From: Octopus vulgaris
Lineage: Eukaryota
Assembly (NCBI GenBank): GCA_951406725.2
Contig: OX597820.1
Coordinates: 4,960,001 to 5,024,000 of the forward strand
Direction: 5' to 3'
Length of the DNA stretch: 64,000 bases
Shown: positions 9,835 through 56,069 of the stretch, piece by piece
Position numbering within the stretch: the first letter of the stretch is position 1
Layout: each line of letters begins with the position of its first letter
The notes under the pieces: model-generated
What the model saw: the letters and a program-made list of their open reading frames with translations, nothing else
The model's database searches: none
What the model was told of the DNA's origin: nothing
Made by a program: the position numbers and the translations under genes

Positions 9835-10066
9835 ATTTCTTTACTGCCCACAAGGGGCTAAATATAGAGTGGACAAACAAGGACAGACAAAGGGATTAAG
9901 TCGATTACATCGACACCAGTGCGTAACTGGTACTTATTTAATCGACCCCGAAAGGATAAAAAGCAAAGTCGACCTCGGCGGAATTTGAACTCAGAACGTA
10001 GCGGCAGACAAAATACTGCTAAGCATTTCACCCGGCGTGCTAACGTTTCTGCCAGCTCACCGCCTT
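9835..10066 (-). mobile_element. SINE family A, full length
   Basis: On the minus strand runs from AAGGCGGTGAGCTGGCAGAAACG to CCCCTTGTGGGCAGTAAAGAAAT. Confidence 0.9.
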
Positions 10067-24792: not shown

Positions 24793-25053
24793 ATATTATG
24801 GTGAATGTTCAGAATGGTGTATTTTGCAGGTGTTTCTCTCTCGCTCCAAATCTCTTGTTTATAAAACACAATTATATGTGTCTGTGGAAGGTTAATAAAT
24901 AAATCGAATGAAAACAGAAATAACAAAAAAAAAATAAAGGAAAGAAATAATGAATAGAAATTTTATTTTTTAAATGAAGTCTCTTGTGTTCACGAAGCAA
25001 TGTGGTTGTAAGTCTATACACACACATACACACACCATAATATATAAACCATT

Positions 25054-25169
25054 AAGGCGGCGAGCTGGCAGAAACGTTAGCACGCCAGGCGAAATACTTA
25101 GCGGTATTTCATCTGTCGCTACGTTCTGAGTTCAAATTCCGCCGAGGTCGACTTTGCCTTTCATCCTTT
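25054..25169 (+). mobile_element. SINE family A, 5' half (tRNA-like head)
   Basis: AGGCGGCGAGCTGGCAGAAACGTTAGC ... B-box-like GAGTTCAAATTCC; breaks off at CATCCTTT. Confidence 0.9.
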
Positions 25170-25222
25170 TTTACACTTTTTCTGTTTTGGCGGCCGTTTT
25201 CGGTCTGTCAGACAGAAAGGAA

Positions 25223-26638
25223 ATGGACTATGAGTCTCTAACAGACTTGTCCACGACAGATGAGGAACTGGAACAGGCAATTGCAATGAAGCTGATGGAA
25301 GAAAAGGCTGGAGTTTTCGAGTCTTTATCAGACTTGCCTACGTCTGAGAAGGAGCTAGAAATGGCAGCAAGGAATTTGGAAGAGAAGCTGGGTTATACCT
25401 ATGCCGGTGTAACCAAGAAGGCGGAAGAGAAAGGGGTCGACATGGCCAAGTTGACAAGTTACCAGAAATACATGAAAAAGGAAAGCGGTGAGGTGGAACT
25501 ATCACCGACACCCAGGAGAAAAGAATGGTATGATAAGAGGACCATTATGTACAGGGTGTTCGCAAACGAAAGGAAGAGGGTAGAAGTTGTAACCATGGAA
25601 TGGATAGAGGAAGCCCTGCGAAGAACTGAGGAGGAAATAAATTTTCTGACTCGAGGATCCAAGTACGGTACCGTAGTTGTGCATTTCAAAACTGAGTCTG
25701 CAGCGAGGAAGATGGCGGCGAAGGCGGTGAAGTCAGAAAAGGTAACCCTATTACCTACGTATTTAAACAGGAGGATTACACGAATAAGGGTGGAGGGAGT
25801 GCCACCAAACGTGGAGGCAGAATGGATTGTGGCGGCTGTGATCAGCGGCCACGAGGACGAGGTGGATATTCTCCATGCCTCGGTTAAGTCCGAGGGCTGG
25901 AGAGGCGTAACAGTGGAGCTGAACGTACAGGCAGAGACCGAGGTACTGGTGGACCTGACGGAAAGCATCAGACTGGGAGACGTGATCATGAGAGTGTGGG
26001 TGGAGGGCAGGGCTCCACGTTGTTACAAGTGTGGCCTGAGGGGTCACATAAGAGCCTTCTGCCCTCCCCCAGGGAAAGAAACGGATTCCGAACCAGAGAG
26101 AGAGAAGCAGAAACCAGAGGAGAAGGAAACAGAGGAAGAGAATACACAGAAATGGAAGGAAGCTGGAAGTAAGAGGAAGAGAAGAATTCGTGGAAAAGAA
26201 AATAATATGGAACTCCAATCTACCCCAAAACCACCCACACCCTCTGAGTCCCACCCTATCCATGCAGACATTGAACCCACCCGCTCCCCCCCAACAAGAA
26301 AACAAAAGAAAAAAAAAGAATACACACACACAAGAGATTGAAATCGAACCCAGGCCGTACATTTGTACTATGACTGAACAGAGGGAAGTTAAAAGTCTAA
26401 TGGAAGAGTATAAACGGTATGATGTTGGAGAGACTAGGTATGCTGTGATTGAAAAAAGAACATAGGTGAGTTTATGGGGAGGTGTGAAAGGGAGAATTGG
26501 GAGGTGAAAGATATAAGAATGAGCGATGAATTCGTGGAAAATATGAATGAGTATTTCGGAGTAAGAATGGATATGGAATTTATTCGTATTGGCAAAGAAC
26601 ATTCAAGTGACTATGAAAAACAAAGGACAGGTAAGTGA
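25223..26638 (+). CDS. Gag/ORF1-like nucleic-acid-binding protein, copy 1 (acidic repeat N-terminus, RRM-like region, CX2CX4HX4C knuckle); two compensating 1-nt frameshifts in A-rich runs
   Basis: Starts MDYESL at ATG 25223. Contains GTVVVHFKTESAA, ITRIRVEGVPP and VEGRAPRCYKCGLRGHIRAFCP (knuckle at 26021-26062), a layout typical of L1/Tx1-type non-LTR ORF1. The consensus of the three copies continues to ...EKQRTGK* (~471 aa). Confidence 0.8.
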
Positions 26639-26986
26639 TGCTGACGGACGGGGCCGTTGGTATCGCTTTCATTTTATCATTTTTTTCGTTTAACACTTCA
26701 TGTTCATATAGTTTAATTATAATGTTCTATGTCCCCATGTTTTGTTATGTCCGCCGTTCTTCGTAGCCCCTTAGTGGGTAATAAAGAAATAGAAATTCGG
26801 CAACGAATTTTGAAGGAGTCGGTCGTGTTTTTTTACGCTCGTAAAATTCGGTAAAAAAGAACAAAAGGCGTTGTTGTTGTTGTGGAAATTCTGAACGGCG
26901 TTGACGCGGTTTCGCGTTTCGCTCGTTCAGCGCGTTACACTTTTTCTGTTTTGGCGGCCGTTTTCGGTCTGTCAGACAGAAAGGAA

Positions 26987-28394
26987 ATGGACTATGAGTC
27001 TCTAACAGACTTGTCCACGACAGATGAGGAACTGGAACAGGCAATTGCAATGAAGCTGATGGAAGAAAAGGCTGGAGTTTTCGAGTCTTTATCAGACTTG
27101 TCCGAGAAGGAGCTAGAAATGGCAGCAAGTAAATTGGAAGAAAAGCTGAGTTATACCTATGCCGGTGTAACGAAGAAGGCGGAAGAGAAAGGGGTCGAAA
27201 TGGCCAAGTTACCAAGTTACCAGAAATACATGAAAAAGGAAAGCGGTGAGGTGGAACTATCACCGACACCCAGGAGAAAAGAATGGTATGATAAGAGGAC
27301 GATTACGTACAGGGTGTTCGCAAACGAAAGGAAGAGGGTAGAAGTTGTAACCATGGAATGGATAGAGGAAGCCCTGCGAAGAACTGAGGAGGAAATAAAT
27401 TTTCTGACTCGAGGATCCAAGTACGGTACCGTAGTTGTGCATTTTAATACTGAGTCTGCAGCGAGGAAGATGGCGGCGAAGGCGGTGAAGTCAGAAAAGG
27501 TAACCCTATTACCTACGTATTTAAACAGGAGGATTACACGAATAAGGGTGGAGGGAGTGCCACCAAACGTGGAGGCAGAATGGATTGTGGCGGCTGTGAT
27601 CAGCGGCCACGAGGACGAGGTGGATATTCTCCATGCCTCGGTTAAGTCCGAGGGCTGGAGAGGCGTAACAGTGGAGCTGAACGTACAGGCAGAGACCGAG
27701 GTACTGGTGGACCTGACGGAAAGCATCAGACTGGGAGACGTGATCATGAGAGTGTGGGTGGAGGGCAGGGCTCCACGTTGTTACAAGTGTGGCCTGAGGG
27801 GTCACATAAGAGCCTTCTGCCCTCCCCCAGGGAAAGAAACGGATTCCGAACCAGAGAGAGAGAAGCAGAAACCAGAGGAGAAGGAAACAGAGGAAGAGAA
27901 TACACAGAAATGGAAGGAAGCTGGAAGTAAGAGGAAGAGAAGAATTCGTGGAAAAGAAAATAATATGGAACTCCAATCTACCCCAAAACCACCCACACCC
28001 TCTGAGTCCCACCCTATCCATGCAGACATTGAACCCACCCGCTCCCCCCAACAAGAAAACAAAAGAAAAAAAGAATACACACACACAAGAGATTGAAATC
28101 GAACCCAGGCCGTACATTTGTACTATGACTGAACAGAGGGAAGTTAAAAGTCTAATGGAAGAGTATAAACGGTATGATGTTGGAGAGACTAGGTATGCTG
28201 TGATTGAAAAGAAGAACATAGGTGAGTTTATGGGGAGGTGTGAAAGGGAGAATTGGGAGGTGAAAGATATAAGAATGAGCGATGAATTCGTGGAAAATAT
28301 GAATGAGTATTTCGGAGTAAGAATGGATATGGAATTTATTCGTATTGGCAAAGAACATTCAAGTGACTATGAAAAACAAAGGACAGGTAAGTGA
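26987..28394 (+). CDS. Gag/ORF1-like zinc-knuckle protein, copy 2 (6-bp in-frame deletion; frameshift in C/A runs near 28045-28072)
   Basis: ORF track 26882..28096 plus 27948..28394; same motifs as copy 1. Confidence 0.8.
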
Positions 28395-28741
28395 TGCTGA
28401 CGGACGGGGCCGTTGGTATCGCTTTCATTTTATCATTTTTTTCGTTTAACAATTCATGTTCATAAAGTTTAATTATAATGTTCTATGTCCCCATGTTTTG
28501 TTATGTCCGCCATTCTTCGTAGCCCCTTAGTGGGTAATAAAGAAATAGAAATTCGGCAACGAATTTTGAAGGAGTCGGTCGTGTTTTTTTACGCTCGTAA
28601 AATTCGGTAAAAAGAACAAAAGGCGTTGTTGTTGTTGTGGAAATTCTGAACGGCGTTGACGCGGTTTCGCGTTTCGCTCGTTCAGCGCGTTACACTTTTT
28701 CTGTTTTGGCGGCCGTTTTCGGTCTGTCAGACAGAAAGGAA

Positions 28742-30157
28742 ATGGACTATGAGTCTCTAACAGACTTGTCCACGACAGATGAGGAACTGGAACAGGCAAT
28801 TGCAATGAAGCTGATGGAAGAAAAGGCTGGAGTTTTCGAGTCTTTATCAGACCTGCCTACGTCTGAGAAGGAGCTAGAAATGGCAGCAAGTAAATTTGGA
28901 AGAGAAGCTGGGTTATACCTATGCCGGTGTAACGAAGAAGGCGGAAGAGAAAGGGGTCGACATGGCCAAGTTACCAAGTTACCAGAAATACATGAAAAAG
29001 GAAAGCGGTGAGGTGGAACTATCACCGACACCCAGGAGAAAAGAATGGTATGATAAGAGGACCATTATTTACAGGGTGTTCGCAAACGAAAGGAAGAGGG
29101 TAGAAGTTGTAACCATGGAATGGATAGAGGAAGCCCTGCGAAGAACTGAGGAGGAAATAAATTTTCTGACTCGAGGATCCAAGTACGGTACCGTAGTTGT
29201 GCATTTCAAAACTGAGTCTGCAGCGAGGAAGATGGCGGCGAAGGCGGTGAAGTCAGAAAAGGTAACCCTATTACCTACGTATTTAAACAGGAGGATTACA
29301 CGAATAAGGGTGGAGGGAGTGCCACCAAACGTGGAGGCAGAATGGATTGTGGCGGCTGTGATCAGCGGCCACGAGGACGAGGTGGATATTCTCCATGCCT
29401 CGGTTAAGTCCGAGGGCTGGAGAGGCGTAACAGTGGAGCTGAACGTACAGGCAGAGACCGAGGTACTGGTGGACCTGACGGAAAGCATCAGACTGGGAGA
29501 CGTGATCATGAGAGTGTGGGTGGAGGGCAGGGCTCCACGTTGTTACAAGTGTGGCCTGAGGGGTCACATAAGAGCCTTCTGCCCTCCCTCAGGGAAAGAA
29601 ATGGATTCCGAACCAGAGAGAGAGAAGCAGAAACCAGAGGAGAAGGAAACAGAGGAAGAGAATACACAGAAATGGAAGGAAGCTGGAAGTAAGAGGAAGA
29701 GAAGAATACGTGGAAAAGAAAATAATATGGAACTCCAATCTACCCCAAAACCACCCACACCCTCTGAGTCCCACCCTATCCATGCAGACATTGAACCCAC
29801 CCGCTCCCCCCCAACAAGAAAACAAAAGAAAAAAAGAATACACACACACAAGAGATTGAAATCGAACCCAGGCCGTACATTTGTACTATGACTGAACAGA
29901 GGGAAGTTAAAAGTCTAATGGAAGAGTATAAATGGTATGATGTTGGAGAGACTAGGTATGCTGTGATTGAAAAGAAGAACATAGGTGAGTTTATGGGGAG
30001 GTGTGAAAGGGAGAATTGGGAGGTGAAAGATATAAGAATGAGCGATGAATTCGTGGAAAATATGAATGAGTATTTCGGAGTAAGAATGGATATGGAATTT
30101 ATTCGTATTGGCAAAGAACATTCAAGTGACTATGAAAAACAAAGGACAGGTAAGTGA
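28742..30157 (+). CDS. Gag/ORF1-like zinc-knuckle protein, copy 3 (+1 near 28895, -1 in A-run near 29830)
   Basis: ORF track 28637..29011, 28896..29891 and 29888..30157 together reproduce the consensus protein. Confidence 0.8.
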
Positions 30158-30310
30158 TGCTGACGGACGGGGCCGTTGGTATCGCTTTCATTTTATCATT
30201 TTTTTTCGTTTAACAATTCATTTTCATAAAGTTTAATTATAATGTTCTATGTCCCCATGTTTTGTTATGTCCGCCATTCTTCGTAGCCCCTTAGTGGGTA
30301 ATAAAGAAAT

Positions 30311-30527
30311 CAGAAACGTTAGCACGCCGGGCGAAATGCGTAGCCGTATTTCGTCTGCCGTTACGTTCTGGGTTCAAATTCCGCCGAGGTCGACTTTGCC
30401 TTTCATCCTTTCGGGGTCGATTAAATAAGTACCAGTTACGCACTGGGGTCGATATAATTGACTTAGTACCCTTGACTGTCATTGTTTGTCCCCTCTATGT
30501 TGAGCCCCTTGTGGGCAATAAAGAATT
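30311..30527 (+). mobile_element. SINE family A lacking first ~15 nt
   Basis: CAGAAACGTTAGC...GGTTCAAATTCC...GAGCCCCTTGTGGGCAATAAAGAA; matches the other family A copies in the window. Confidence 0.92.
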
Positions 30528-30618
30528 AAATATATAAACCATTGTGTATCTGAACATCTGACCATGCAATTAACAGTTCAACCATTTTGTAATGTGCGTG
30601 TGTGTAAATGTGTGTGAA

Positions 30619-42125: not shown

Positions 42126-42560
42126 ATTAGGGAATAAATCCAAACTTACAGGGAAAAATCAGATTTAGGATTAAATCCAATTTTATAGTATAAACATATT
42201 ATATTATATTATATTAAATTAGAGATAAGACCACTATTAGGCAAATCAAACAATGAAAAACATAAGCCAATACATAAAATTAATTTAATTTATATTATTT
42301 TAAATATATATCAAAGTATTAAAAGTTTAATAAAACACTACGATCGTTTCATGGCTGTACAATTCGAATAACAATAATATATATATATAAGAAAGTATAC
42401 TAGTTCAATGAGAATAGACATTAAGTATTAAAAGTTTAATAAAACACTACGATCGTTTCATGGCTGTACAATTCGAATAACAATAATATATATATATAAG
42501 AAAGTATACTAGTTCAATGAGAATAGACATTAAATATTTAATCTACAATATTTCATTTGT
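42126..42560. mobile_element. (TA)n-embedded Penelope-like terminus with a 108-bp tandem duplication
   Basis: Matches 2551-2750. AAGTATTAAAAG…GAATAGACATTA is repeated (~42314 and ~42423). The minus-strand GAAACGATCGTA resembles a hammerhead 3' half. Confidence 0.7.
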
Positions 42561-47128: not shown

Positions 47129-48370
47129 AGTTAGTTAGTTAGTTAGTTAATTTGGCTCAAAAGCAAATAGCAAGGCCATGTAGGGGGACATGGAGTTAAG
47201 TACAGGGTGGTGTTCATGTAAAGAGTTCAGGCCACTTGAGGTCCAGGGAGGCTTTGAACAAAGCGGTCGTCGGCATCTTCACCATCTCGTCTGGCAGCTT
47301 GTTCCACGGATCCGCAACCCGGACGGAGAAAGCTCCTCTCCTTCGATTGAGATGAAATCGTCGCAGGTAGAGCTTTTCGGAATGACCCCGCAGCCGACGC
47401 TCCGGAGCAGGAGTGAAGAACAGCTCTTTCGAGAGGTTACACTTCCCGCTTATGATGTTGTGGGCGAGAATGAGATCACCACGGCGGCGGCGTTTTTCAA
47501 GAGAACAAAGGTCGAGCGTCCTCAGCCTTTCTTCGTAGGACAAATTTTTGAGACCATGAACCATGCGGGTAGCCAGCCTCTGGACTCTTTCGAGGTGCTG
47601 TATGTCTTTGAGGAGATAAGGAGAAGAGGCTTGAATCCCATACTCCAATATGGGTCTCACCAGCGTGACATAGAGTGGCAGGAATATGGCTGCTGTGAGC
47701 ATTCCGAATGACCGTTGAATCAAAAACAGAATTCCGCGCGCCTTGTTGGCAGCATGGACGCACTGGGCCGAAGGCGAAAAGGAGGAATCCACCAAGATAC
47801 CCAGGTCCTTTACCTGATCGGTCCTCTCCAGCAGCAGACGACCCGGCTCGAAATCAAGTTGAGTTGCAGGAGTAGAGCCGACAGGCAGATGACAGCACTT
47901 CGACACGTTCAGACACAGGTCCCAATCGTTAGACCACTTCCAAATTTGGTGGAGGCATCGACGAAGATCCTCTATACTACCGCGAGGAGCGACCAGTTTG
48001 ATATCGTCGGCAAATAGAAGGGTGTGTTGCGTAATGTCGTCGGGCAAGTCATTTATGAAGACTAAGAACAACAAGGGCCCAAGCACTGAACCTTGAGGCA
48101 CGCCACTGCTCGCACTGGAGACGTCGGACCGCGAACCATTAACTTGAACTTGGAAGGAGCGATCTGAGAGGAAGGCACCAACCCATCGTACAATATCCGG
48201 ATAGAAACTATATGCTTGAAGCTTGACAAGTAGTAGGCGGTGGTTTACCGAGTCAAAAGCTTTGGCAAAGTCCAATAAAACGATGTCAACAGCATCACTA
48301 TCATCGAGGATGCGCGTCATCAATTCTTCCATTACTAGTAAGTTGGTCAAGCATGATCTCTTCGGCACGA
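47126..48370 (-). mobile_element. 5'-truncated CR1/L2-group LINE; uninterrupted 384-aa RT and C-terminal frame (47214-48368); (TAAC)n tail; inserted in (TA)n
   Basis: RT motifs LDFAKAFDSV, SGVPQGSVLGPLLF, LLFADD, VKDLGI and LERVQRLAT; (GTTA)n at 47126-47150. Confidence 0.95.
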
Positions 48371-48486
48371 TATATATATATATATATCATTAATAATATC
48401 AAGGTAAGACAAAAATTTAGAAAATTTTTACTACCAGTGGCTTAGTGTGCAGGAAAATTAGTCAATAAACTATACATTAATCATAT

Positions 48487-55019: not shown

Positions 55020-55998
55020 TATTTCTTTTTTCTAGTTTCAGCTCAGAGCTGCGGCCATGCTGATGCACCGCCGTTTTGTGCTACACTCTTATTACGAAGA
55101 ACCTCCTCTAATATGTGGCACTTGGTGAAGAATGGAGTTTGATATAGCTACTCTCATTTGCACCACTTGCCGTGAGGTAGGTTCATCTGGGACTCTTGAC
55201 AGGAAGATGTCCAGCTTTGATTTAAAAACACCTACATCTACTTTGTGCAAGTTCCTCAGACTCTTTGGGAGTATATTAAAAAGCTGTGGGCCCTTGAAAC
55301 TCAGGCTGTTGCAGAAGCTGGTCCTGAAGCGTGATGGCATTGCTAGGATCTTTGGCACTATGCAGTGTCGTCCCGTTCTAGCGTTGGTGTAGCTTACAAT
55401 GCCAAAATTTGGCACAATTCCTTCCAGGATCTTCCAGACATATATTACTGCATACCTCTCCCATCTTCTCTCCAGGGAGTAGAGTCTTAGCTGTTTCAAC
55501 CTTTCCCAGTAGCTGAGCTGTTGCAAAGAGATGATCTTCTTTGTGAATCTTCTCTGGATTGCTTCAAGGTCCGCTGTTAATTTTACACTGGTGGGTGACC
55601 ATAGCTGTGAGCAGTAATCCAGGCGACTGAGGATGAATGTCCGCCAGAGGACCATCATGGTTTCCTTATCTCTGGTTCTGAATGTTCTTAGGATCCACCT
55701 AGCCGGTCGTCTGCACTTTGTCGCCATCCTGGTAATGAGCACTTGGAAAGAGGTATCATCACTTATGTCTATACCCAGGTCCCTCACAGACTTAGGCTCT
55801 GGGATTGAAATTCCCTGTGGACCGGTGTATCCTGTAAGTTTAATATTCAGTTTTGGATGCTGGTAGCGCAGGGCCTGGAATTTTTCAGCATTAAACTGCA
55901 TAGTTATTATCCTCAGCCCATCTGTAGATTGAGTCCAACTCCTGCTGCAGGTGTGCAACATCGCTGAGGTTCTGTATTTTCTGCGAGACTTTCGTATC

Positions 55999-56000
<2 letters not shown>
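55020..56000 (-). mobile_element. 5'-truncated CR1/L2-group LINE (RT C-terminal half; frameshift near 55900) with 3' UTR
   Basis: DTKVSQKI…[12 protein letters not shown]…MQFNAEKF…VRDLGI…RLDYCSQLWSP…LEAIQRRFT…LYSLERR; flanked by (TA)n. Confidence 0.92.

Positions 56001-56069
<69 letters not shown>

Follow-up and report, generated by a model that had tools for sequence, protein, structure and literature searches.

How did three copies of a protein-coding repeat come to stand between two pieces of a short interspersed element (SINE), and why does a single target-site duplication (TSD) enclose all five segments? These questions are raised by a locus within a 64,000-nt stretch of Octopus vulgaris DNA (GenBank assembly GCA_951406725.2, contig OX597820.1, positions 4,960,001 to 5,024,000 of the forward strand), which is referred to here as the window and which consists of microsatellite-rich eukaryotic DNA from a genome of 2.8 Gb. 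The answer that is regarded as probable is that a host SINE was present first, and that three units carrying only a first open reading frame (ORF1) were later inserted at a hot spot inside it, with the capture of a second, truncated SINE RNA.

The structure itself is real and corresponds to that described in an earlier, sequence-only reading of the window. The 15-mer AATATATAAACCATT is found at two sites in the window, 25039 and 30529, and at none besides, and between its copies lie, in order, SINE nt 1-117, unit 1, unit 2, unit 3 and SINE nt 16-233. The SINE pieces share a segment (25069-25169 and 30311-30411) in which 8 of 101 positions differ, the initial 18 nt being the same and the earliest mismatch falling at SINE nt 34, and they are more divergent than the units, which differ pairwise by 15-16 substitutions across about 1.6-1.75 kb. 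Unit 1 lacks its 5' part, beginning at unit nt 145 (25171), and the tails of all three units end in AATAAAGAAAT followed by AGAAA or CAGAAA, as had also been noted. The SINE is presumably of an octopus type, for which no search supplied a name. An Rfam search gave no meaningful match.

A recurrent insertion site inside the SINE

Fundamental to the proposed order of events is the right junction, where the tail of unit 3 meets SINE nt 16. This tail-to-SINE join has 23 exact-pattern matches genome-wide, and the tail-to-nt 16/17 pattern has 165 matches at no more than one mismatch (reversed control, 0). At the 24 loci of this kind that were examined, the element upstream of the join is a SINE in 23 cases and an internally deleted long interspersed element (LINE) in one. 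The 23 exact matches include four other non-SINE insertions at nt 16, and in three of them (C18, C2a and C2b) SINE nt 1-33 precede the inserted element and ~19 nt are imperfectly duplicated. The host SINEs of C2a and C2b retain their own outer TSDs, of 17 and 14 nt respectively, and C2b holds two elements with the ~19-nt duplication between them. The SINE pieces of the window agree over precisely nt 16-33, which is the stretch duplicated at C18, C2a and C2b. The right SINE also possesses a 29-nt diagnostic word that has zero exact matches elsewhere, and it differs at 9 of 218 nt from the nearest full-length relative checked. Thus the older host is likely to be the right SINE, because nt 16/17 is a recurrent site, because inner duplications and outer TSDs are found among C18, C2a and C2b, and because its 29-mer is unique. 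The 15-bp TSD would then belong to this host SINE and would be no mark of one single event. SINE-in-SINE stacks are also seen at nt 16/17, as well as at nt 50 (L051-L073, L109-L132), with multimers of up to five heads.

What, then, of the two origins put forward by the sequence-only reading? One was a single target-primed reaction at a bare site, in which five RNAs (SINE, three units, SINE) were copied in series within the 15-bp TSD. A perfect duplication around the whole arrangement and a left junction that resembles an end-to-end join of RNAs both speak for this origin, but it requires a SINE RNA with its 5' end at nt 16, a position that at three other loci acts as a target in DNA, marked by a duplication of its own, and that presumably falls inside the A-box region, going by the place of that box in tRNA-type promoters. 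Moreover, the right SINE 29-mer is without an identical donor whereas the left head has one, and the spacers between the units are relics of DNA targets. Given the recurrence of nt 16/17, and the inner duplications of ~19 bp found elsewhere together with outer TSDs of the host, the 15-bp TSD does not stand as the bracket of a five-RNA event, and such an event is considered very improbable. The other suggestion, integration of a circular or concatemeric intermediate into a resident SINE, survives in part: a resident SINE, struck at its hot spot, does appear to be involved, but the recombination route is not needed.

Under the favoured order, a SINE would first have inserted at AATATATAAACCATT, creating the 15-bp TSD. 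The endonuclease and reverse transcriptase (RT) of an L1-group (Tx1-like) LINE would subsequently have nicked this SINE at nt 16/17 and primed on the unit tail, a step proposed because that position is the recurrent junction for elements with this tail.

The units, their spacers and the growth of arrays

The units are 1.75 kb in length and encode a protein of 369-372 aa with a CCHC knuckle, for which Pfam returned sub-threshold matches only (a weak zf-CCHC with E 0.066, below the cut-off) and no RT or APE family. Their partner is found in the C19 array, which holds a LINE with an intact ORF1, an APE-RT ORF2 and the tail of the units. The ORF1 of this LINE also has a CCHC knuckle and is 32% identical to the unit ORF1 over 236 aa (E 8e-44), while its ORF2 of 1130 aa contains APE, RT and zf-RVT domains and has human L1 ORF2p as its top match in the PDB (E 3e-64). 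A related 3' tail, CCCCT..GTGGG(T/C)AATAAAGAA, is common to the units, the SINE and two LINEs, and probably serves the enzyme of the partner LINE.

HAL1 (half-L1) is an element of mammalian L1 descent that has ORF1 only, without endonuclease or RT, is kin to an autonomous L1-group element and ends in a poly(A) tail. The units are HAL1-like, ORF1-only passengers of an L1-group LINE, because they have no RT, because their ORF1 is akin to that of the C19 LINE and because the tail is shared. That they are mammalian HAL1 proper was rejected, as poly(A) is absent from the units of the window. The partner LINE is putatively Tx1-like, in that it combines an APE endonuclease, an RT and a C-terminal zinc motif with a CCHC knuckle in ORF1, as the Tx1 clade does; no named Tx1 references are found among 120 listed homologues. 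An internally deleted LINE inserted at SINE nt 17 (L114, G000:C1:105.51 Mb), in which ORF2 residues 6-30 are fused to 1065-1121, is possibly an intermediate in the birth of ORF1-only units.

The spacers that separate the units represent the TSD of another repeat. The sequence AGAAATTCGGCAA(A/C)GAA is present as a single copy inside the empty target of an unrelated repeat, which has 774 matches, while at C17 and C19 two copies of it flank insertions. The 13 nt that follow the spacer are the 5' end of the LINE family with that target, and spacer and leader occur together at three loci only, namely the window, C17 and C19. LINEs of the C19 type lie at one site of this same repeat in C19, C5 and C18b, reflecting a multicopy target preference. 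As a second target, the 774-match repeat is struck at one site by the full LINE family and by its units (L133-L147; G000:C5:2.69 Mb, C18:68.11 Mb, C19:67.42 Mb, C17:0.62 Mb).

Such foreign spacers point to a multi-unit donor or to re-insertion at a leader that the units carried with them. When 52 units were aligned, unit 2 proved closest to the third C17 unit, and alleles of the C17 type were seen to run from the 3' half of unit 1 over the junction into most of unit 2, a pattern that would favour co-copying from a multi-unit template. A donor search with a unit-2 diagnostic word gave one more copy, of another subfamily. Because the inter-unit spacers are the TSD of another repeat, the third step of the proposed history would be the co-copying of the units from the read-through RNA of a stacked donor array, to which roughly an even chance is assigned. 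Re-insertion at the carried leader within the locus is possible but clearly less likely, separate end-to-end jumps are doubtful, and a circle is a fainter prospect again.

How do such arrays normally arise? Other arrays are known from a best-match sample, a genome search with unit 2 in which 20 of 596 candidates were scored and which provided 76 matches. Most of these belong to head-to-tail arrays in which subfamilies are mixed, and some of the arrays enclose full LINEs. Since the bodies of neighbours (30 pairs) diverge about as much as those of non-local copies, 14 of 26 scorable pairs differ by no more than 1 nt in the first 200 nt, and spacers duplicate the local upstream flank at C14, C8, C4b, C17, C10c and C2b, arrays usually grow as one element after another inserts at the 5' end of a resident copy, the new 5' joint presumably being made by homology. 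Tandem duplication of a single unit was rejected as a general origin, neighbours being as divergent as non-local copies.

Applied to the window, this habit leads to an alternative in which the resident SINE and the captured SINE head are kept but the units came singly, unit 3 with its foreign leader and then units 2 and 1 at the start of the leader, each 5' joint being formed by annealing to resident sequence. Sequential stacking is the usual manner of building arrays in this family, as the divergence of neighbours and the flank-copying spacers indicate, and C17, C19 and C18b show renewed use of the AGAAATTC site. However, no SINE-derived duplication lies between the units of the window, unlike at C2b; the units are unusually alike, with 15-16 differences against a neighbour mean of about 41; and the unit 1/unit 2 junction is crossed by the C17-type alleles. 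Arrival one at a time is therefore judged to be rather unlikely.

Two further observations concern arrays at other loci. Four units of different subfamilies at G000:C14:47595400-47602500 (L041) have one common 5' truncation point, and their spacers duplicate about 35, 50 and 68 nt of the upstream flank; duplications of such length suggest that the resident unit supplied the 5' joint of every newcomer. Long upstream and downstream flanks are common to many arrays, including L034 (C13), L035 (C8), L037 (C7), L038 (C3), L039 (C19) and L048 (C1); a short hairpin and then CTAG close the downstream flank, as in Helitron-type elements. A larger DNA element may carry arrays around the genome.

The left junction, its probable donor and the weight of the evidence

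The left junction, where SINE nt 117 meets unit nt 145, has one match genome-wide, which is the window itself. A 41-mer from the left head has two exact matches genome-wide, in the window and at C23, together with three at one mismatch. The SINE copy at C23 (L149) shows no difference from the left head over 116 nt, and with a T in place of C at nt 117 it reads TTTT at nt 114-117. This T4 of the donor, followed by the start of the unit at nt 145 (TTACAC), accounts for the T6 in the window with no overlap and no extra base. Among 43 unselected full SINE heads, none is identical outside the 41-mer and four have T117. Twelve other loci carry a T tract at this SINE position, and at five of them the head stops there and is joined to other sequence.

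TTTT is the established stop signal of RNA polymerase III (Pol III), and it is here that transcription of the C23 SINE would have terminated. Sequence identity makes it likely that the left head was picked up from such a truncated RNA of the C23 copy, and at least one RNA-to-RNA join is likely to be part of the history of the locus. Either RNA ligation or template jumping could have made this join. That the SINE heads come from different templates, as the sequence-only reading had held, is borne out by the identical donor at C23, and for this same reason the 101 bp were rejected as a long TSD. The SINE at position 9835, in which the sequence-only reading had seen the CTTAGC/GCTACG variants of the left copy, was rejected as the template of the left head, from which it differs at 10 of 116 nt (91% identity). 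At L160 (G000:C5:29.81 Mb), a SINE head that ends at a T tract is followed by two A and then by the 5' end of a full SINE, a further candidate for an end-to-end join.

In the host-first history, copying would thus have passed from unit 1 onto the C23 SINE RNA, by an end-to-end jump or by way of RNA ligation, because the left junction is the donor T4 plus the unit TT without overlap. The end of the complementary DNA would finally have annealed to host nt 1-33, hiding the inner TSD and leaving the apparent 101-bp repeat with its 8 differences. The presumed inner TSD of the window (SINE nt 16-33) is indistinguishable from the donor's own nt 16-33. A more extreme sequence, in which priming took place once at the SINE hot spot and four separate RNAs were then copied end to end as a chain (three leader-bearing units and then the prematurely terminated C23 SINE transcript), is given only a slim chance. 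If true, this chain would testify in vivo to serial template jumping, or RNA ligation, by an L1-group enzyme of an invertebrate, and its donors could be traced.

Could the locus have been assembled at the level of DNA instead? A circle or concatemer of units might have entered the SINE by recombination; alternatively, gene conversion by the C23 copy might have replaced the left head, with a later deletion fusing unit 1 to it. Tail plus TSD plus leader is the junction expected of a circle formed between C17-type TSDs, and the units are mosaic. Yet the left junction is without microhomology and falls exactly at the donor T4, and the block of C17-type alleles exceeds one unit, which a single circle does not fit. 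Recombination of a circle or concatemer, as entertained by the sequence-only reading, also predicts left-type junctions at other loci, and none was found in the genome-wide search. An origin of this kind is considered improbable.

The left end is supported by Logan contigs from 4 of 4 runs (two of organism A and one each of B and D, low-share runs being set aside), in which the left flank runs into SINE nt 1-21/23. These joins fit the host-first order without dating it. Contigs bridging the SINE-unit junction were absent from the listed pieces, but SINE copies swamp the left end, so this absence proves nothing. A mis-join or a wrong copy number in repeat-rich DNA would be in keeping with an array that no read spans and with signs of mixed alleles in unit 3, but an assembler would have no cause to generate a perfect TSD at both ends, a right junction on a known hot spot, or a left junction explained base for base by a donor that stops at a terminator-like T4. 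An artefact is thus very unlikely.

Several points nevertheless weigh against the insertion of the units, with a captured SINE RNA, into an older SINE. With respect to the host, the fourth nt 16 locus, C16, has no upstream SINE head in about 9 kb; nt 34-116 of the right SINE head are identical to copy L072, so the argument from age draws on the 3' half only; the sister-species contigs extend no further than SINE nt 1-23 and are so alike that they give no date for the host; and the intact LINE that was found uses the other target rather than SINE nt 16/17. With respect to the units, a donor triple array is absent from this assembly, where the spacer and leader patterns gave the window, C17, C19 and LINE copies only, and sequential re-insertion at the leader is the habit of the family. 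No read or contig from the four runs crosses the array or either SINE-unit junction, and the units are fine-scale mosaics, with one site in unit 3 that resembles an out-of-register hybrid, such that alleles may have been mixed during polishing. With respect to the left head, the 12 further loci with a T tract include no join to a unit or LINE, its three G-to-A variants recur in L152, and the identity with C23 could possibly reflect a tiny SINE subfamily or gene conversion rather than RNA capture.

Table 1. Features of the locus, in coordinates of the window.
Feature	Position	Strand	Remarks
Left copy of the 15-bp TSD AATATATAAACCATT	25039..25053	+	Probably a property of the resident SINE; compare the outer duplications of 17 nt (C2a) and 14 nt (C2b)
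SINE head nt 1-117, TTTT end	25054..25170	+	nt 34-117 from a second SINE template; match G000:C23 (L149), 0 differences in 116 nt
SINE nt 16-33, same on both sides	25069..25086	+	Place of the inner target duplication (~19 nt) known from C18, C2a and C2b
Unit 1, ORF1-only, 5'-truncated at unit nt 145	25171..26790	+	ORF 25223-26341, 372 aa, CCHC knuckle
Spacer AGAAATTCGGCAACGAA	26791..26807	+	Relic of the TSD of another multicopy repeat; next comes the 13-nt leader, the 5' end of the LINE family using that target
Unit 2, including spacer and leader	26791..28546	+	ORF 26987-28096, 369 aa; 7 substitutions separate it from its closest copy, the C17 array's third unit
Second foreign-TSD spacer	28547..28563	+	Same sequence as the first
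Unit 3, including spacer and leader	28547..30310	+	ORF1 disrupted near 28892 by one inserted nt, possibly an artefact of the consensus
SINE nt 16-233	30311..30528	+	Probable resident host; 3' tail common to SINE, units and LINE
Right copy of the 15-bp TSD AATATATAAACCATT	30529..30543	+	Exact match to the left copy

Elsewhere in the window, fragments of RT-like LINE reading frames, judged by eye from their translation, lie at 47217-48386 (-) and 55095-56063 (-), and a direct duplication of 109 bp with 99% identity is found at 42314-42538. The fragments are unrelated to the array, as are the remaining long reading frames of the window, which are microsatellite frames or LINE fragments.

Relation to known systems

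The units resemble HAL1 in being ORF1-only and related to an autonomous L1-group element. They differ from it in having a shared structured tail instead of poly(A) and in forming dispersed head-to-tail stacks of mixed subfamilies.

With respect to the left junction, the closest relatives are the chimeras of small RNAs with L1. U6/L1 chimeras consist of U6 ending in about 4-6 T joined to a 5'-truncated L1, and ligation by RtcB has been shown for them (Moldovan 2019, PMC6789731), while either ligation or a switch of template is held responsible for Alu/L1 chimeras (Law and Burns 2025, PMC11838501). Like both, the left junction of the window joins a Pol III-type RNA with a T-tract end in sense to a 5'-truncated L1-group sequence, and like the U6/L1 type it does so without microhomology. 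Unlike these chimeras, as far as the sources describe them, it has as its 5' partner a SINE that breaks off at an internal TTTT and is traced to one genomic copy, and as its 3' partner a string of ORF1-only units, placed within a SINE host in an invertebrate, with the inner TSD hidden by homology.

The targeting and the stacking also have counterparts. As with the Tx1-Mar LINEs and SINEU of crocodilians, and Xenopus Tx1 in Tx1D, machinery of the L1/Tx1 group prefers a site in another repeat, and in SINEU (SINEU-3) tandem copies sandwich a TSD and are interpreted, in the portion of the paper covered, as sequential insertions (Kojima 2015, PMC4494074). In the window, unlike in those systems, the target is a SINE that has its tail in common with the LINE, ORF1 is encoded by the passengers, and the target of another locus is the source of the spacers. 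Drosophila tandems with a sandwiched TSD are similarly interpreted as sequential insertions, and the R1 tandems made by double insertion share with the window a head-to-tail order and a target duplication in the junction that marks the locus of tandem formation; in the window, unlike in R1 as presented in the part covered, the junction TSD points to a locus other than that of the array (McGurk and Barbash, bioRxiv 10.1101/158386). The literature searches listed no paper with this arrangement in cephalopods. For octopus, 13 recently active L1-Tx1 families are described, with nothing on nesting in the text covered, and the supplements or repeat library of that study may bear on novelty (PMC13282606).

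What might be learned from the locus? The layout of U6/L1-type chimeras would be extended to a SINE RNA in an invertebrate, with a single source copy named, and an old, mutated SINE copy would still be able to be transcribed and captured. The defined end of the RNA makes ligation and template jumping testable against each other. The locus also exposes two traps, in that a single outer TSD may be the host element's own and a TSD within an array may originate at another locus. ORF1-only passengers, repeat targeting, tandem stacking and small-RNA chimeras each have precedent; the interest of this locus lies in their combination and in its traceability.

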